From: Octopus vulgaris
Taxonomy: Eukaryota
Direction: 5' to 3'
Assembly (NCBI GenBank): GCA_951406725.2
Contig: OX597820.1
Location: forward strand, 76,880,001 to 76,944,000
DNA length: 64,000 nt
The notes under the pieces were generated by a model, which was given only the letters and a program-made list of their open reading frames with translations, was not told where the DNA came from and did no database searches. Made by a program: the position numbers and the translations under genes. Shown here piece by piece: positions 23,495-59,659 of this stretch; within the stretch, counting starts at the first letter, position 1; each line of letters opens with the position of its first letter.

Positions 23495-23680
23495 TGAGCT
23501 GGCAGAAACGTTAGCACTCGGGCGAAATGCTTAGCGGTATTTCCTCTGTCTTTACGTTCTGAGTTCATATTCCACCGAGGTTGCCTTTGCCTTTCATCCT
23601 TTTGGAGTCGATTAAATAAGTACCAGTTGCGTACTGGGGTGTATGTAATCGACTTAATCCCTTAATCCCCCCTATGTTTA
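23495..23680 (+). mobile_element. SINE family B copy
   Basis: GAGCTGGCAGAAACGTTAGC...GCCTTTCATCCTTTTGGAGTCGATTAAATAAGTACC; colinear with 63828-64000. Confidence 0.88.
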
Positions 23681-23716
23681 GCCCCATATGGGCCATAAAA
23701 AAGATATTATTATTCT

Positions 23717-23885
23717 CGTAACCACCATCAATGATCTTCATCAGCTTGGGGAACAACCAAACTTGACGGGAAGCAAGGTCTGGATTGTAGGAAGAGTGAA
23801 AAATTGTTTTAATGCCCATCTCCGTCAAGTGTTGGATTACCAGGATGTAACTGTGGACAGGTGTATTATCTTGGAGCATTTGATA
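23717..23885 (-). pseudogene. mariner transposase C-terminal relic
   Basis: Translation LQDNTPVH...HSSYNPDLASRQVWLFPKL matches the mariner motif HDNAPxH...HPPYSPDLAPSDFWLFPKL. Confidence 0.8.
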
Positions 23886-24109
23886 AGGCGTTTTGCGATT
23901 AAATATCCTCCTCATCACACTGAAAACCTCTACAAATCAATCTCGTTTACGATTTAGCCAATGGGTCTCGTGTGGATGTTGACTGCACCTTGCGATTGAC
24001 AAATGGATCATCGTGAGCTACTTGGTTCGGTTCTACCAGCAGAAAGTAGGTGCTGGCTCTTCAGCAGGTTCATTCCAATACAATCTGGAGTATTTCACAA
24101 CTTTTCGCA

Positions 24110-25018
24110 TTGTGTCATCCCATAAATAATGCAGTTTTTTAAATACTTGGGTAGGGCTTCGTTTTCTATTCAAACTGCTTCAGCCTTTGGAGTGTCATCC
24201 TTGCTGTGTGTTGCCGAGCATTATCCTGATAGAAGAAGACCTTTCACTTTGAAACCAAAGATGGTCGTTTTTCTTCTAGCATTGCCTAGTTTGGATTTAA
24301 AGGTTCAAAGTGGGCTAAAAATTTCATATCCCACCAAACAGATACGTGAGTGAAGACATCCTTTAACCAGGGTGCTGTTGTTTCTCCGTTTCCTAAACAA
24401 TCTGTCTTCGGCGCTTGACATTTTCATGGAGAACCCATTTCTTGTCACAAGTCACTATTCGTGAGACGTGACAGCAAAGAAGAGCACACATTCACTTCGC
24501 GCGATTAGACGCGGCAAGTTTGTGATGAATCCCTTGACCCACTTTACTGACTTTTCCGATGGCACGCAGGTGTCAATGAATGGTTGAATGGCCAAATTCA
24601 AGCTTCTTTGCTTGATTTCCTCAACAATCACGATGGGATTTTTTTTCTACCAGAGTTTGCAAGACGTCTTCGTCGAGTTCTACAGATCTTCCAGGACGAG
24701 GCTTGCCTTCTAGACTGTAGTGTCCGACTCGGAATTTCTGGAAACATATACTGCATTAATATTCCTCACATCTTCCGTTCCGCTGTTGCCTTTATTGAAA
24801 TTATAAAGCAAAATATATCGAATACGTTCCTTTGTCACTTCGATTGAAAAAATAACTGTTAAAATCGAACAGCACACTTCAAAACGTTCACTAAGAATAA
24901 GGACAATGTTAAATATCTACTTGCTTTTATAGCTGTTGACGCAGGTAGCTTGTCCCGTCCCCATCTGACTTTTAGGTCATGCAAGTGAAAAAACTGCATA
25001 ATTTATGAAATGACCCAA
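24110..25018 (-). mobile_element. Internally deleted mariner DNA transposon with both TIRs
   Basis: ~31 bp TIRs at 24110-24140 (TTGTGTCATCCCATAAATAATGCAGTTTTTT) and 24988-25018, with TA on the right flank. The minus strand gives broken transposase segments ERIRYILLYNFNKG, PRPGRSVELDEDVL, VTCDKKWVLHEN and FFYQDNARQHT. Confidence 0.88.
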
Positions 25019-30811: not shown

Positions 30812-31745
30812 CTTTGCACACCTTCTAACGCTGGAGATGTACTACGGTATCAGCTGTTCACTATCAGAGAACGAATGTAACACCCCTTATTTTTCGAGCA
30901 CCATCCGGAGGATTCGAGCGGTTCCGGTTTATATGCGTACCATGTTTTGCTCTGTTCAGTCCTTACTTGTTGCATAGTGTCCAATTGACAACCTTTCCTA
31001 TATTGTCATAACGTCTCATATATTCTTTCTGGGCTAGAGGGGTACATTGACTGGTAATTTGGCATACGGTTTCATCATTTTGTCCAGAAATTCTGCACTT
31101 ATCACTTCATGATGCTTTGCCTATTCTGTATTTGATGTAATTGGTTCTTAATGCTTGCTCTTGACCAGCACAGATTAGAGCCTCCGTTTCCGGTTTTAAA
31201 TCGCTTTTAGTCATCCATAGATATCGTTTTCTCTGCCTGTCTTATCCCTATGAAATTGTCCATGCATTCTTTTCTTTATCCACCTATTTTCTGTTTCATT
31301 AATTTTCAAGTCCATGGCATTTTTTTACATAGCAAGCGATGTTGTTTTATTCTACTCTAACGCTGTGTTCGCATCCAATCAGTCCTCTTCCCCCACTTTT
31401 TCTTGATACATACATTCTGTCTTTGTCACTATTTGGGTGGAGTATCCCATATCTAGTCAGTAACGTCCTTGTCATTCTGTCTACACTGTTTACTTCCTCA
31501 ACTGTCCAAGCGATTACCCCCTGCATATATCTAAGGTGTGAAACGGACCATGTTTTGATAGTTTCAATCTTATTTTGTCCGGTTAAATTCAACTTAAGGA
31601 TCAGTGTCAGTCTTAGCAAATTCTCCAACTCACTTTTTTCCGGCATTTTTTTCTCCACAAATTTATCCATTTCCAATATCACCAAGTACTTATAGCTCGT
31701 CTCTTCTATTTGCTTCATAACCTCCCTCGACGGTATCTTTATTTA
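30812..31745 (-). mobile_element. R4/Dong-clade LINE relic
   Basis: The minus strand gives YKYL..., HPNSDKDRMYVSRKSGGRGL and WMTKSDLKPETEALICAGQEQALRTNY, homologous to the element at 43435. The 3' end abuts a TAA-rich tract. Confidence 0.88.
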
Positions 31746-34668: not shown

Positions 34669-35471
34669 GGAGCTGATGCAGTTTCGCACCTCTTCATAAA
34701 AAACGCATTTTTCTGAAAGACATTTTTCGGATTCCTACGTTTTTGGATGTCAGAGATTACAAATATACAAAAGCGAAAAGAAAAATTTACCCCACCTCCA
34801 TTTAAAATTTTGAACGTTTTCGAATTTTGTTTTCCCCCAATATTTTATATAACGGAGATTCCGAATATGCAAGAAACCATATTTTTAAAATTCTAAGTTC
34901 AGTAAACATATAGATATGTGTATAAAGAGATAGATATGAATGTCTTCCTGGGGTTAAAAACAAAAGTAACACCATCTTCTATAGAACTGCCGCATTCATT
35001 TCACAAATATATTTTGTGAATAAACGGACAAGGGTAAATAGATAGACAAATAAATCGATGAAAAAGTTCAAAATTTAAAATTGGGGTAGGGAGTGAAATT
35101 AGAGCCGCTTATTAAATTGTATAACATTAATTATTAAACGGTGTTTGTTTCTCATAAAATGATGTATATTTAATTTACATTAAATTATTATTCAAGATTA
35201 TTTAAGGCAACCATAAATAAAACGAAAATTATTTTCTCTTTAATGTTTATTTTTTAAATTTAATTTCGATTCGTTAACTCGCTACAATCTCTTTAAAGTC
35301 GATAAAATAAAAAAATATAAATTGGGAGGGGGGAGGAAGAGGTGGAGAGGGGATATTTTTTTCTTTCTTTTTTGCATATTCGTAATATCCGACATCTAAA
35401 ATGTAGGAATCCAGAAAATTGTTTTAAAAAAATGCATTTTTCAAGGAGAGGTGCAAAACTGCATTAGCCCC
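34669..35471. mobile_element. MITE with ~120 bp TIRs and an 8 bp TSD (Merlin-like termini)
   Basis: Left end GGAGCTGATGCAGTTTCGCACCTCT; right end AGAGGTGCAAAACTGCATTAGCCCC. Flanks CTCAATCC (34661-34668) and TTCAATCC (35472-35479). Confidence 0.85.
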
Positions 35472-37171: not shown

Positions 37172-37499
37172 TGTGGCGAACCCTTAAGGATCGATGCTAC
37201 TGTAGCTTGTAGCCCCAGGAAGATATATCTTCCAGTTGGTTATTGACACACTATCTGCGACCTATCAGTATTTGCAAAGGGAAGTCATCGTTCCCGACTT
37301 TCCTTCGCTAATACTAATAGGGTACAGATAGTGAGTCAATAGCCAGCTGGAGATGTCTTCCTGGGGCTACAAGCTACAGTAGCATCGACCCTTAAGTGTT
37401 AACCACACTTAGGTGACAAGTATGCTAATTAAAACACCAGTCTGCTAGAAGTAAACCCCGCACAGGATTTACTTCTAGGAGACTGGTGTTGTAATTAGC
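37172..37499. repeat. Two adjacent long hairpins (37172-37407 and 37424-37499) of the hammerhead-associated repeat family
   Basis: 37191-37223 is a perfect 33 bp reverse complement of 37356-37388 within ~115 bp arms. The second hairpin is GCTAATT..ACACCAGTCT.CTAGAAGTAAA / TTTACTTCTAG.AGACTGGTGTT.TAATTAGC. Confidence 0.9.
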
Positions 37500-37627: not shown

Positions 37628-37737
<110 letters not shown>

Positions 37738-37943
37738 GTTATAAATCTCTGAGCTAGAGAAATAAATAACAGTACCGAATAGCAATGTTTATATGCCAAC
37801 AGAGTGTGACAGTCCTATAAAGAAGGATGTTACTGTTGTTTGAGCGCAGGAAAACATCTTTTCCAGCTGGCTATCGACAGTTTGTGTCCGTATATAGCCT
37901 TTGCAAGGTAGGTCATCGCTGCCATCTCTTGCCTTACGTGATA

Positions 37944-37988
37944 CTCACAGACCTAGGTTTCTGGATTGTGATCCGTCCTCAGTGTGAA
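37944..37988 (-). ncRNA. Minimal type I hammerhead ribozyme, catalytic core intact
   Basis: Minus strand: TTCACA CTGAGGA CGGAT-CACA-ATCCA GAAA CCTAGG TC TGTGAG. This reads as stem I / CUGANGA / stem II / GAAA / palindromic stem III / GUC site / stem I'. Confidence 0.8.
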
Positions 37989-38127
37989 ACAATCACCAGC
38001 TAGTGACGAAAGGTATCTCCACACGCACATCCGCTGAACTCGCACTCATAGGTACTTTTACTCTATTTCTTTCGCTCAGAGATTAAAAACATGTTGTTTT
38101 TCCCCACACGACATCAGCGACTGTGTG

Positions 38128-38164
<37 letters not shown>

Positions 38165-38171
<7 letters not shown>

Positions 38172-38721
38172 AAATATCTCAGAGAGATTTATACAGTAGT
38201 GGTACGATTAAGTAGTTGTATACTGCCATCTTAATGTAACAGTCTCTGGGTGGAGGTGCACAGGAAATGTGTCAAGGCCGACAGGAAGCGTTGCTGCTTC
38301 CTAGGGCTAAATAGCAGTAGTATGATTCCCTTCATGGGACTGTCACATTAAGTTGACAATATACAACTACTTTATAGTACCATTACTGCATAAATTTCAA
38401 TCAGATATTTAGAAATGTATTATTTCTACTTTTGTAATTAGAAAATTTATTTCACTAGAATTGTTATATGTTAACAAGAAGTAGATAGGCATCTCTAACT
38501 AGCAGGCCATGTTACTCCAGACTGATGATGAGCAAAGACTCAGAAACTATGCTCTGGCTGAAGGCTTAGCTGAGTGGATGTGCTTATCTCCCCCTTGTAA
38601 ACATAAGGATACAGAAAATGTGTCAAGGCAGACAGGAAGCATTGCTGCTTCCTAGGGCTAAACAGCAATAGTGTGATTCTCTTCATGGGACTGTCACATT
38701 ACGTTGACAGTATACAACTAC

Positions 38722-38722
<1 letters not shown>
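38165..38722 (+). mobile_element. Retrozyme/Penelope-pLTR-like unit: ~110 bp direct repeats 351 bp apart enclosing a hammerhead, with an inverted partial copy at the 5' end
   Basis: AAATGTGTCAAGG...GGGACTGTCACATTA.GTTGACA.TATACAACTAC starts at both 38265 and 38616. 38165-38243 is an inverted copy of 38338-38419. Confidence 0.75.
38517..38557 (+). ncRNA. Minimal type I hammerhead with mutated cleavage site
   Basis: CCAGA CTGATGA TGAG-CAAAGA-CTCA GAAA CTAT GC TCTGG. Stems I and II pair perfectly; the expected CTAG-TC reads CTAT-GC. Confidence 0.7.
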
Positions 38723-38790
<68 letters not shown>

Positions 38791-38795
38791 GTAAT

Positions 38796-39238
38796 TACTC
38801 TTTTTTATTTGTTTCAGCTTTTTGACGGCGGCCATATTAGACCATCACCTTCAGTCGAACAAATCGACCCTGAGTCTCATTCTTTGTAAGCCTAGTACTT
38901 ATTCCATCGGATCGTTTGCAGAACCGCTACATTATGGGGACGGAAAAACACCAGCATCAGTTGTCAAGTTATAGTGGGGGAGGAAACACAGACACACAAA
39001 CATATACACGCACATATACATATCTAGATACGTGTGTGTGTGTGTGTGTGTCTGGACATGTGTGTTTGTGTATACGACCGGCTTCTTTCAGTTTCTGTCT
39101 ATCGTATCCACTCACAAAGCTTTTTGTCAACTCGAGTTTATATTAGAAGACACTTGCCAAGGTGCTACGCAGTGGGAGTGAACCATATAGTTGATAAGCA
39201 AGCTAGTTACACACAGCCTCACAGCCACTCCTGCGACT
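38796..39238 (-). mobile_element. SINE family A copy (diverged)
   Basis: Colinear with 4884-5284. Confidence 0.85.
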
Positions 39239-43435: not shown

Positions 43436-45586
43436 TGTTCAAGGCATTTACTGCAGTGATATCGCAAAGGCTGAACAAGCACCTGGACGAAAACAAACTG
43501 TTCCCAGAAGAGCAGAAAGGATGCCGCAAGGGCTCATAAGGCTGTAAAGATCAACTAATGATTAATAAAGCCGTAACTGAAGACAGCCACACAAAGAAGA
43601 AAGGCCTCAGTATGGCCTGGATTGACTACAAAAAGGCGTTTGATAGCATCCCCCACACATGGATCCTCGAAACACTAGCCATTAACAAAGTAGCACCAAC
43701 AATCATAAAATTCATAGAGCACTCTATGAATAAATGGCAAACAGTCCTACACCTCCAAACAAAAGAGGGACTCATGAAAACCAAAGACATCCCCATTAGA
43801 AGAGGAATATTCCAGAGAGACACGCTCTCTCCACTCCTTTTCTGCTTGGCACTGTCACCTCTATCTGATATGCTAAATAGAACTGGATGCGGATATAAAT
43901 GTTACGGCAAAACGATCAGCCACCTTTTATATATGGATGACCTAAAACTATACGCTGCAAATGACAAACAGCTGGAAACACTATTAAAGACAGTTCATGG
44001 ATTTACCAAAAAAATAGATATGATATTTGGATTAGAAAAATGCGCCAAAGTAACCATGAAAAGAGGAAAACTAGTTAAGAGTAACAACATCACACTAGAT
44101 AAAACCAATGAAATAAAAGAATTAGACCAAAGCCAAACTTACAAATACTTAGGAATCCATGAACTAGATAAGACACAACACACACAATTGAAAGAGAAAA
44201 TAAAAAAAGAATATTATAGACGAGTTAGATCAATACTAAAAACAGAGCTCAATGCTAAAAACAAGATAATAGGTATCAACACTTTAGCTGTCCCAGTTAT
44301 AAGTTACAGCTACAATATCCTTAACTGGACACGAAATGAACTGTCCAAAATAGATAGGAAAACAAGAAAAATACTGACAGGATCTAGGATGCATCACCCA
44401 AAATCTGACATAGAAAGACTATATATACAACGTATAGAAGGTGGTAGAGGCCTTATACAGCTGGAAAACTACTATAAAATAACCACCATAGGACTGCAAA
44501 AATAGCTACTTCAGAAGGAAGGAAAACTGATCCAGATAGCAGCAAAACACGAGCAAAACAAAAAACTGTTCTCAGTATTTAAGGAAGCTGACAAATACAA
44601 ACAAGAAATCATACCATCTAATAAACACAAAGAAGAAGAAGAAGATGATGAAGAAACAACAAAAGCTATCAAACAAATGAAATCCAAACTAAAAATAGAA
44701 CAGCAACAAGCCATGATAAAACGATGGCAAGAAAAACCCCTTCATGGTAAATACTGCACTAAACTAAACGCAAAAGAAATAGACAAAGAAAAATCCCAGC
44801 AATGGTTGAGAAGCTCAGGACTCAAAGCAGAAACAGAGGGATTTTTAATTGCAGCACAAGACAAAAGCCTCCCCACCAGAAATTACCAAAAACATGTAAT
44901 GAAAAGAAATATTACAAGTAACTGCAGAATATGTGGAGATGGACAAGAAACAATAAATCATATTATCTCTAGCTGCCCAGTCCTGGCTAAGAAGGAATAT
45001 ATTCACAGACATGACAGAGTTGGAACCTACATACATTGGAAGCTATGCCAACATTATGGAATAACAACAGAAAAAAGATGGTATAGGCACACACCAGAAA
45101 AGGTCACAGAAAACGAGAAAGCAACCATACTCTGGGATATGCCGATACACACAGATAGAGAAATTAAGGCCAACAGACCAGATATAGTTGTCAGAGATCA
45201 TGAAGAAAAAAAATGCTTTCTAATTGATGTATCAATACCGGCAGATGACAACGTGTCTCTAAAAGAAATGGAGAAACTCTCAAAATACAAAGACCTGGAA
45301 ATAGAGGTAACTAGAATGTGGAACCTGAAAACAGAAACAATTCCTATCATAGTAGGTGCATTAGGCATGATAAACAAATATTCAGACAAATACATAACAA
45401 AAACACCAGGACTTACAAACACATATAACATACAGAAAATTGCACTACTAGGCACTGCATACATCCTAGGCAGAACACTTTCCATACAATAACCATCAGA
45501 GCATCACAACAAATCACAGCACATACCCAAGGCACACAGAGCTGCGCTCGGTAGTGAAGTGAAAGCACGCTATAAAAATAAAACTA

Positions 45587-46266: not shown

Positions 46267-46330
<64 letters not shown>

Positions 46331-46394
46331 GCACAGATTCAATCATCTCGCTACAGTAAAAAATTGTGAAGCATGACTGTCACCACTACTACAC

Positions 46395-46437
46395 GAACCT
46401 GAAGATTGCAGAATTTACTACATGAAAGTACTAGTTC
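46395..46437 (+). ncRNA. Minimal type I hammerhead, core intact, stem II weakened
   Basis: GAAC CTGAAGA TTGCAG-AATTTA-CTACAT GAAA GTAC TA GTTC. Stem I GAAC/GTTC, palindromic AGTACT stem III and a CUA site. Confidence 0.6.
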
Positions 46438-46741
46438 AATCATTTAACAGTCTATTATTTTATTTTATTTTATTATATTATATTATCTTATATCATTATA
46501 AGATTGTAAATAAAACGTGAAAATCAGACAAGGTTGGAATTCCTTTTATTAATATATTCTTCTATACACAATCACACACACCCGTATATATATCTATATC
46601 TATATATATACATATATATGTACATACATATAGATATAGATATACATATATAAATGATATATCTATAGAATGTATATATATATATATACGGACCCATGGA
46701 AAACGAACTTCCTCCAACTATATTGCCTATGTCTGCAGCTC

Positions 46742-50599: not shown

Positions 50600-51420
50600 C
50601 GGGGGTTAAAATTAATTTGGTTTTATAGAATTTGGCCAGGCGATGAAAACTGAGATGAATGAGAAAGTTGCAGCTGCACTGTGTGAGAAGGTGATCAGTG
50701 ATAATGATGATACGCTCCAGGAGTAAAATATGAAGAAGAATAGAGAAAATATTATCAAGAGGAAAGAGGAAGTCTTACACGGAGAGGTTTTTCCAACAAA
50801 CATCAGATGAAGCTGAGGAAGACTCCTGGAGAGGGATAAGACGGTCATATAAAGAAGGAAACAGGAGTGGTTCTAGTTGCTCAAGAACAAGCTTTGAGAA
50901 CCAACTAATGAGTAGCATTTATAAGAGAGGTGTATCAGGTTTGTGTAGACTATGTGGAGAGACAGCTGAGATAATTATCGGATGCACAAAAGTGACTGAA
51001 AAAGTGTACAAAAATTCTACAACAAAGAGGCATTTCTGTACGCATTGGGGGAAATCCAAAAATTATGAGCTAGAAAAGAAACCTTTTCTAGTAACCGAAC
51101 ATGACCAAGTGAAACTCACACGGGATACGCCAATAAATATAGACAACAAACTGAAACATAACCGAGCAGATACCACTGTCCTAATGAAGGAGTGAACAGA
51201 ACGGATCTTCATCGACATAGCAATACCTGCAGACTAGAATATTGTGAAATCAGAGTCCGAGAAAGTCGGGCAAAACTAGGACCAAGGATTGTATGTGAAA
51301 ATAATCCATAGAGCCTCAAAAGTTAGTGTGGTGCCTTCTGAGATCGGAGTATTTGGGACCACCTCAAAGAGAGAAATTGTAACATCAAAAGCTGCAAAAG
51401 CGAAGCTTCTCCAAGAATCC
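50600..51420 (+). mobile_element. R4/Dong-type LINE relic (zinc knuckle and endonuclease region)
   Basis: GHIKKETGVVLVAQEQALRTN, CRLCGET..IIIGC, KLKHNRAD and IFIDIAIP fragments, with stops and frameshifts. Confidence 0.8.
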
Positions 51421-57705: not shown

Positions 57706-58854
57706 AGTATATATATATATATATATATATATACAGATGTGTGTGTGTTTGTGTGTGCGTGTGTTTGTGTGTGACGTAGTCTAAGATCGTCTAGGCTAAA
57801 TTTTGTAACACCCAAGCGGAATTGATTTAAATACAAAAAAAAAAAAGACTTCGCTCTTGTAATTCATTTTTGGCGATGTTACTAACTTTAATGATCACTT
57901 CAGAGCTTGCAAAATACACTATAAAACAAACGTTGATTGATGTTCAGTTTACAAATATATGGATTACACGTAATTATGCAGATCTTTGGATGCATATGTG
58001 TATGGTTTTAGTTTAACAATATGTGCATGTTGGTACAAATGTATTGGCGTTTGCGTTCGATGTGTATTGATACGTGTGTCTTTACGTCGGTTATAGAAAA
58101 AAAACCAATGCGAGTAAATTAATGCAGTGCTTTTTCGTTTTTTCTTCTGGATGAATATTTAATTACTATCGACCATGACTGTAGTTGAGTCTTATTTACA
58201 TACACACACAGACTGACACACACGAAGTCTCTCACTTGTCAACACACACACACACCTCTCTCTCTCTCTCTCTCTGTATATATATATATATATATATCAA
58301 TACATGATATTATATATATATATATATACATATATATTTAACGTACGATGAAAGTAAACAAATTTGCTTTAAAAGCGTTGTTGAGATGTATTGAAAGATA
58401 CAGAAACAATTTATTCTCGAACGCACGTTAATGCCAATACAATAGCATAAACAGCATAAGCTATCCATATATTGCAGAAAAATTCGTTACGGCCAGCTCT
58501 GAAACTCGAACTCACATCCCTGTTATTACGCATCAAATTCTTTACTTTTAAACTAAACAGCCCAGTAACGATTTCTGAATTGAATTTAACGTTAGCGTCT
58601 TATAAAGCTAGATTTTTAAATCCTAAAATTGCAGAAAAACTCGTTATTGGGCAGTTTAGCTTAAAGCTAAAGCATTTGACGCATTTGACGCAGGGATGCG
58701 AGTTCAAGTTTTATGGCTGGCCTGTAAGGAAGTTTTCTGCAATATATGGATAGTTTATCCTGTACATGCTATTTTATTCGCATTATCATGCGTTTGAGAA
58801 TAAATTATTTGCGTATCGTTATATATATATATATATATATATAATAAAGTTCAT

Positions 58855-59075
58855 TTGCCAACATAAGGTGGCAGTCCTCCATAGGACTATGTGCGTTACT
58901 ACGTTTTAACCCCAGGAAAACATCTTTTCCATCTGTTTTATCGACAAATGGTCTGTGTCCGAGATATACTGTATGTAATGTGTCTTTGTGATCCCTTCTA
59001 GCCGTTGGCTGTACCAGGAGACCAATGTTTCTAGGAAGAAGAGAAATTACGTAGAAGCCATTGGTGTGCTGGTAC
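58855..59075 (-). mobile_element. Copy of the hammerhead-associated repeat, directly upstream of the GIY-YIG relic
   Basis: CAGGAAAACATCTTTTCCA.CTG...TATCGACA is shared with 37847-37879. The minus strand has a GAAA-CATTG-GTC half-hammerhead near 59020-59031. Confidence 0.65.
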
Positions 59076-59109
59076 TGCTGACTGCAGTATCAGCAAACCA
59101 ATCATTCAA

Positions 59110-59483
59110 TTTATCTAGATACAATGATAGCCGATGTGTCATATGCCAATTCATGCATTCCGGCCAATATAGGAACGCAAAAAATCGAAAAAATATTCAC
59201 AAACACAAATATGAACTGCAAAAGTAGAAATTTAATTTACTGCATCAAATGCCCGAATTGTGAAGAACTATATGTAAGTCATGCTGGAAATGCACGTGTG
59301 CAGCGACAGCAAATTAGAAAACCAGATATCCGTCAGATAACATTGAGCAACAATCTAGCAACCTGTAGTCGGAAAATATTTATATTTCAAATCTACAAAT
59401 TATACAGTCCAAGTGAAATAGAGAGAAAAATTAGAGAAAATAATTTTATTGATAAATTCCAACCCAAGTTAAATAAACAATAA
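59110..59483 (+). pseudogene. Penelope-like element GIY-YIG endonuclease relic
   Basis: RCVIC (frameshifted), then NCKSRNLIYCIKCPNCEELYV...ERKIRENNFIDKFQPKLN, typical of PLE GIY-YIG domains. Confidence 0.85.
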
Positions 59484-59659
59484 CAATGATACTCAGAGGG
59501 ACTATTTCTACTGCTACGCCCACTACCACTAACAACAACAACGACAGTATTGAAGGTTGACAAGACGATGATAGCAGGAAAATAGTAGCTAAGTCAAGGG
59601 AAAAGTCAGTAAAAATAATTTTATTTAGTGTTTAAAGTTCTCTTATCACAGCTACTCCA

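Follow-up and report, generated by a model that had tools for sequence, protein, structure and literature searches.

The window, a 64-kb stretch of the Octopus vulgaris genome (G000:C7:76880001-76944000, from a microsatellite-rich 2.8-Gb assembly of 227 contigs), carries a type I hammerhead motif on its minus strand at positions 37944 to 37988, recognised by its sequence, a descriptor match, and covariation. Stem I pairs 37988-37983 with 37949-37944 through a U.G wobble and five Watson-Crick pairs and is followed by the CUGAGGA core strand (37982-37976), a C.A opposition at the base of stem II (C 37975, A 37962), stem II itself (37974-37971 with 37966-37963), the GAAA strand (37961-37958), the palindromic stem III ACCUAGGU (37958-37951), and C17 of the GUC triplet (37950). 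Cleavage is predicted between 37950 and 37949, the site given in the initial annotation. All of the type I core positions (C3 U4 G5 A6 N7 G8 A9, G12 A13 A14 A15.1, and U16.1 H17) were present, with an open stem I; the G10.1-C11.1 pair was absent, and the C.A adjoins the core and is followed by G-C. The full descriptor (core, stem II of at least 4 pairs, UH, and stem I of at least 6 pairs) had one match in the 64-kb window and none in 300 of 300 block-shuffled windows, confirming the motif as it had been described. A core-only pattern matched the window five times against a chance mean of 1.3, and with 2 of 100 shuffles equally high this was not significant alone. The free-energy z-score of the 45-mer was unremarkable (-0.43, unconstrained folding).

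The motif had been described as a minimal hammerhead, which understates its helices. An extended stem I (37938 to 37996, minus strand) continues beyond an internal loop with five extra pairs (37996-37992 with 37942-37938) that had been overlooked; these distal pairs were predicted in folds, and their columns were conserved in 36 copies of the repeat family to which the motif belongs (family A). Helix I thus comprises 6 pairs, the internal loop, and 5 pairs, and helix III comprises 2 pairs and a palindromic tetraloop. A helix I of 6 pairs, a helix II of 4 positions, and a helix III of 1 to 2 pairs with a palindromic loop are described as canonical (PMC4209133), an invertebrate architecture treated as distinct from the min-HHRs (PMC4209133, PMC7229834), in which helix II has 7 to 8 pairs and helix I has 4 to 5 (PMC4209133). 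Family A differs from min-HHRs in its helix I of 6 pairs with a distal stem, its short helix II, the presence of helix III, and an extra A before G12. The extended stem I would dock with loop 2 through a tertiary contact.

A scan with the Rfam type I hammerhead model, proposed earlier as a check, did not recover the motif: no match reached the gathering score anywhere in the window, and no hammerhead family appeared at E≤10 in a scan of 37700-38800. Genome-wide, RF00163 (Hammerhead_1) gave six matches among 73 scored candidates, none of them in family A or the related family B. One of the six (L178, G000:C5:6546758-6546804, minus strand; 45.5 bits) is compact and canonical looking, and three others (L179, L180, and L183) are interrelated and have a long insert in stem II; all four are unrelated to families A and B.

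The C.A at the base of stem II had been regarded as the only defect of the motif, but it is the state of the family. Of 43 intact family-A cores taken from loci, 37 had C.A at the base of stem II, 5 had U-A, and 1 had A.A; family-B cores had C.A in 12 of 17. In 66 family-A rows with an exact core and stem III, read by eye, the 3' partner at this position was A in 65, and the 5' partner was mostly C (48 rows, against 13 with T, 3 with A, and 2 with G); each of the 13 T residues precedes a G, the mark of CpG decay. Of 60 cores from the two families, 46 had G-C as the next pair, and most of the exceptions were A.C from CpG decay. Because C.A is the majority state in both families, the U-A "repair" proposed earlier restores nothing. 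That proposal drew on a paralog with U-A at 38529/38542. The U-A is there, but it belongs to a hammerhead of the sister family B (38517 to 38557, plus strand), which lies on the opposite strand, is decayed, and has a broken cleavage triplet (altered at 38550-38551). The residue at 38529, U here, is C in most copies, and since family B is mostly C.A, this U-A is likely a decayed C.A, again through CpG decay.

Family B has a 351-nt unit and gave 3,406 search candidates. BLAST of A against B found no match, and their homology rests on a local alignment compared with shuffles, in which the units were about 60% alike (214 of 359 columns identical; score of 130 versus 51 ± 8 for shuffles, with a maximum of 87). 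A wider clan around B had 779 intact-core matches versus 6 in the control. In the first 100 listed cores of this clan, read by eye, the base of stem II was C.A in 35, U.U in 34, A-U in 17, U-A in 9, and other combinations in 5; G-C was found in none of these 100.

The stems covary among the related families, as a working hammerhead had been expected to show. Between A and B, stem I changes on both sides at pair 2 (C-G to G-C) and pair 5 (U-A to C-G), and stem II changes from G-C or G.U to A-U; within A, stem II has A-U in the 13-nt subfamily (A13) versus G-C in the 14-nt subfamily (A14) and in B. Stem II was 87% paired in alignment A1 and contained 21 doubly changed cells, a count reached in 1 of 500 shuffles; every slid control was lower. 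Both families have a palindromic stem III, of 8 nt in A and of 6 nt in B. In the MAFFT alignment of the two families, the gap in stem III was placed wrongly, so that only stem II was counted there; the counts for stem I came from sequences anchored at the core. Covariation supports all three helices through few independent events in three related subfamilies.

Mismatches at this place in stem II have precedents. Natural U10.1-U11.1 hammerheads carry one at the most conserved pair of stem II, where U.U is reported as the best tolerated mismatch (PMC3088659), and the axolotl HHR_Amex2, with U.U at the base of stem II, cleaves 22% as a monomer and better as a dimer (PMC7229834). The octopus families share with the U10.1-U11.1 variants a natural mismatch at this pair, and U.U itself occurs in 34 of the 100 listed B-clan cores and in one Penelope-like element (PLE) of this genome. 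They differ from the variants described in PMC3088659 in having C.A as the majority state. No paper found in a literature search that had two likely sources outside its reach named C.A at the base of stem II. The C.A may lower activity. The families add a natural C.A variant, missed by the Rfam model, at the most conserved pair of stem II.

The mismatch also bears on whether the fold is a catalyst at all. It could be a protein-binding or structural signal in which a stem II base other than G-C marks lost catalysis; the lack of G-C in the first 100 listed B-clan cores (by eye) would suit this idea, as would reports that PLE hammerheads are weak or protein assisted (PMC4209133, PMC11167929) and that 8 of 9 predicted Xenopus dimers failed to cleave (10.64898/2026.07.22.740005). 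However, in A as well as in B the majority residue is the catalytic one at every core position and in the UC triplet, although the units have diverged by 40%, none of the 12 core columns carries a shared variant, and the axolotl retrozyme with U.U at the same place does cleave (PMC7229834). We consider a noncatalytic role to be very improbable.

The window copy of the motif lies inside a dispersed, noncoding repeat of approximately 352 nt. Two genome searches gave 2,022 and 2,517 candidates for this family A; the exact core with stem III matched 66 times in the genome versus 0 in the control, and the strict pattern of stem I, core, and stem III was found in 21 copies, including the window copy. 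Tandem copies had a period of 351 to 357 nt. The sense piece in the window has a GC content of 42.5%, and the unit is noncoding with no coding match, so that its size, GC content, and lack of coding capacity lie within the ranges used for non-LTR retrozymes (150 to 450 bp, GC below 50%, and noncoding). Family A is old on the sequence comparisons made here, with no young copies: the mean pairwise identity among 63 copies was 83% (maximum, 92%), the window copy was 8% off the column majorities, and none of 40 copies scored from the 2,517 candidates was more than 92% identical to a near-majority copy. No long arrays were seen among 59 insertions, the longest of which was 608 nt, and the 49 intact A cores included no intact tandem pair, so no source locus was found; family B had three such pairs among 29 cores. 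Several family-B insertions (L044/L047, L037, and L167) carry two or three intact tandem hammerheads spaced 351 nt apart, which are 96% alike in L044. Two short pieces in opposite orientations at 37186-37390 are 73 to 81% like the 3' half of family A, lack a hammerhead, and are possibly a third family of the clan. Another weak piece lies at 34940-34990.

The window copy is an insertion with the anatomy of a PLE. A sense piece on the minus strand (37732 to 38030) covers unit positions 1 to 305 of 352 and ends at the longer of two 3' end classes; it is separated by a 20-nt spacer (38031-38050) from an inverted piece on the plus strand (38051 to 38128, unit positions of about 259 to 333), which forms the 5' side. 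The insertion lies between a (TA)n tract at its 3' end (37630 to 37731), the putative target site, and another on its 5' side (38128 to 38167) that is shared with a separate family-B insertion (38155 to 38726, plus strand), made of an inverted piece (38155-38244) and then 1.3 units of the 351-nt repeat (38259-38726). Because both flanks are (TA)n, any target-site duplication is hidden. The copy runs without a break through the cleavage site (unit position 80) and contains unit positions 259 to 305 twice; its template was therefore longer than a cut linear monomer and, as the map shows, was a circle or an uncut multimer.

The same anatomy recurred among 59 distinct family-A insertions. Their 3' ends clustered, with 28 in unit bins 240-259 and 17 in 290-319, whereas their 5' ends were scattered over 26 bins. 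An inverted piece was present in 18 of the 59, its outer end falling at one of the two 3' end classes in 15 of the 18 (by eye); 20 of the 59 exceeded the unit length as partial tandems, and a microsatellite adjoined the 3' end in 29, against a background of 10%. The BLAST-picked A loci are biased toward the extent of the query; among 30 insertions picked by pattern and read by eye, 16 ended at 245-256 and 5 at 297-314. Family B has two 3' ends homologous to those of A, and in a bona fide PLE of the O. vulgaris genome the two 3' ends lie within (TA)n, separated by about 35 nt. Features reported for PLEs are 5' truncation, partial tandems, an inverted 5' copy, a tail, and a (TA)n bias (PMC8557442), the tail lying between two internal reverse transcriptase (RT) start sites and being called unique to PLEs (PMC11167929). 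Truncation, partial tandem, inverted 5' copy, tail, and microsatellite target were all found in family A, which thus resembles PLEs in its partial tandems, inverted 5' copy, optional tail, and AT-rich or (TA)n targets (PMC8557442, PMC11167929). The two 3' ends of A are about 45 to 60 nt apart, compared with 30 to 40 nt in PLEs (PMC11167929). From this anatomy, we infer that family A was mobilized in trans by PLE proteins.

A more direct relation is conceivable, in which the family-A unit is the pLTR of an old autonomous PLE whose inserted copies lost the ORF through 5' truncation. The insertion anatomy of A equals that of PLEs, hammerheads occur in PLE pLTRs (PMC4209133), and many Xenopus retrozyme families match pLTRs (10.64898/2026.07.22.740005). 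The hammerheads of A and of PLE pLTRs also share a palindromic 15.2-16.2 region and a nucleotide between A9 and the conserved G-C pair (PMC4209133). In the window, an A-like piece (58841-58978) lies 120 nt from an endonuclease remnant, and at another locus (L059) one lies about 720 nt from an endonuclease. However, both of these endonuclease neighbors are on the opposite strand, and the one in the window (59096-59583, plus strand) consists of the 3' end of a PLE endonuclease followed by the start of that other PLE's own 3' region. No pLTR match to A or B was found among 64 sampled PLE endonuclease loci (34 retrieved with the endonuclease remnant of the window, plus 30 GIY-YIG loci), and no PLE ORF stood in register beside the A or B loci sampled; pLTRs differ from family A in this respect, as A had no ORF in the sampled loci and no flanking RT and GIY-YIG ORF. 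The 3' regions of the 30 GIY-YIG loci had no A/B match, and those of 33 other PLE loci had one weak 49-nt match. Moreover, 20 of the 59 copies exceed the unit, with its end joined directly to its start and a 352-nt period without an ORF, and the helix sizes differ from those of min-HHRs. An origin of A as a pLTR is therefore unlikely. A comparison of B with one PLE 3' region scored 78.5 versus a shuffle maximum of 78; the alignment was AT rich and was rejected as a match.

The genome contains two young PLEs besides several older ones. The first (L102-L105; G000:C1:27839500-27856000, C2:86033000-86040000, and C27:38212000-38219000) is very young, with 4,271-bp tandems of 100% identity and 11,638 search candidates, and it has two frames, a 454-amino-acid ORF1 overlapping a 775-amino-acid RT and GIY-YIG ORF2 in another frame. 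Of 36 copies counted, 32 have CCGAAGA (U4C) as the hammerhead core; the base of stem II is U.U, and position 17 is A. A third hammerhead-like motif in the window (46323-46593, plus strand; core at 46399), with a partly decayed stem II, is a terminal-repeat remnant of this element at 88% identity. The second young PLE (L142, L147, and related loci) has a 781-amino-acid frame and a 3' region with a hammerhead-like motif whose core is UUGAUAA (U3-A8). This region has two 3' ends separated by about 35 nt, and its internal repeats contain many ATTGG and TGACGTC motifs.

Folding predictions, which used nearest-neighbor energies and ignore tertiary contacts, agreed with the earlier suggestion that the ribozyme would work best as a dimer. 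The minimum free energy of the 37936-37996 monomer was -15.3 kcal/mol, in a misfold that pairs the core with the palindrome and lies 4.9 kcal/mol below the active fold. Two copies together reached -36.2 kcal/mol in exactly the active double hammerhead, versus -30.6 kcal/mol for two misfolded monomers. No second family-A hammerhead was found in the 64-kb window, and the family-B hammerhead is on the other strand with a different palindrome, so a transcript through the site has no partner in cis. The window copy alone is predicted to misfold and cut poorly and to be largely inactive. Circular folds of B units were strong relative to shuffles (z of -5.1 to -9.0 in 6 of 6 units), and those of eight A units were weak (z of -0.3 to -2.9), with the antisense strand equally strong.

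These predictions bear on the idea that the host has kept the window copy as a functional ribozyme for cleaving a minus-strand pre-mRNA or a noncoding transcript. The copy is among only 21 that match the strict pattern of stem I, core, and stem III, and its 2-pair helix III is of the type reported to cleave as a monomer in coral and mussel (PMC7229834). The minus-strand pre-mRNA suggested in the initial annotation was nevertheless unsupported: a Pfam scan of 150 of the 331 longer open frames, which short exons would escape, gave no host exon and matched only transposon domains (RVT_1, zf-RVT, and mariner HTH). Core decay was also neutral-like, with private mutation rates of 5.3% in the core versus 7.3% outside (Fisher p=0.15, not significant). 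All 12 core positions were kept in 19 of 36 BLAST-picked A copies, as expected at 5% decay per site, so an intact core in the window copy calls for no particular explanation. This copy is 8% off the majorities and has an A-to-C change in loop 2, and the missing A partner in the 64 kb and the different strand and palindrome of the B hammerhead also count against host use, which we judge quite unlikely. Shared variants occurred in 0 of 12 core columns versus 16 of 195 columns outside, a pattern consistent with selection during the spread of the element and with little or no selection once a copy had inserted. Sequence of both families was present, at 80% likeness, in contigs of four sequencing runs that are only guessed to be RNA, and no high-identity piece among those listed from these runs spanned the window hammerhead. 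Joints for B that go back 329 to 349 nt also occurred in a run of unknown kind and thus do not show circles.

We therefore read the motif, with good confidence, as a type I hammerhead carried by a lone family-A copy that is 8% diverged, the family most likely being an extinct non-LTR retrozyme mobilized by PLE proteins; the earlier placement of a type I hammerhead with a palindromic stem III in a noncoding repeat of the Penelope and retrozyme world was well founded. On the features that sequence can address, the family mostly belongs with the animal non-LTR retrozymes (PMC7229834; 10.64898/2026.07.22.740005). It shares with them a noncoding unit of 150 to 450 bp (352 here, 350 to 390 in mussel, and 330/350 in axolotl; PMC7229834), a GC content below 50%, tandem and solo copies, and co-occurrence with PLEs (PMC7229834; 10.64898/2026.07.22.740005), as well as one canonical-size type I hammerhead per unit with a short palindromic helix III. 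The helix III of 2 pairs in A and 1 pair in B parallels the axolotl HHR_Amex2 and HHR_Amex1, respectively (PMC7229834). Family A differs in having C.A at the base of stem II, where HHR_Amex2 has U.U (PMC7229834), and in being old and mostly solo or in partial tandem. Neither A nor B had a sequence match to the PLE terminal regions sampled, whereas many Xenopus families match pLTRs, and the solo window copy falls outside the "active" retrozyme definition of Li et al. 2026 (10.64898/2026.07.22.740005).

For such a retrozyme, tandem source copies would be transcribed, two hammerheads would pair through the ACCUAGGU palindrome and release unit-length RNA, and this RNA would probably be ligated to a circle. 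A PLE reverse transcriptase-endonuclease would then nick a (TA)n tract, and its RT would begin synthesis at either of two fixed internal positions and continue round the circle or along a multimer. The resulting insertions would have fixed 3' ends, 5' ends that are ragged or inverted, and lengths beyond one unit. One PLE inserted in vitro without needing its hammerhead (PMC11167929), so the cutting and circularizing steps are put forward for family A only conditionally. PLE mobilization of retrozymes is argued in the available text of earlier reports from co-occurrence and pLTR similarity (PMC7229834; 10.64898/2026.07.22.740005). The two fixed 3' ends, two-ended inverted structures, and over-unit lengths described here are evidence for it at the level of the insertion.

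The single locus matters little, being one of thousands of decayed copies with no host role indicated. At the family level, the results extend animal retrozymes to the O. vulgaris genome; literature searches found no description of a hammerhead or retrozyme in octopus or other cephalopods, and neither "ribozyme" nor "hammerhead" appears in the main text of an article annotating octopus repeats (PMC13282606). The stem II base without G-C is the one odd feature of an otherwise known kind of retrozyme. More tentatively, and in our view with somewhat less than an even chance, the octopus families could represent an undescribed clan that never has G-C at this place (C.A, U.U, or A-U instead), is active only as dimers, and is recognized by PLE proteins through its structure. 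If so, dimer-only folding would be a built-in switch by which multimers are cut and circles stay shut, and the clan would bear the tail signature of two start sites although no sequence in common with the terminal repeats of the resident PLEs is detectable. The very young PLEs in the same genome would then make the question of what mobilizes animal retrozymes testable in vitro.

Other elements in the window are remnants. A non-LTR retrotransposon remnant with RVT_1 and zf-RVT matches lies at 43540-45489 (plus strand), and fragments similar to it by eye lie at 31350-31742 (minus strand) and 50734-51192 (plus strand). A mariner transposase remnant with an HTH_48 match lies at 24713-24916 and 23568-23936, both on the minus strand.
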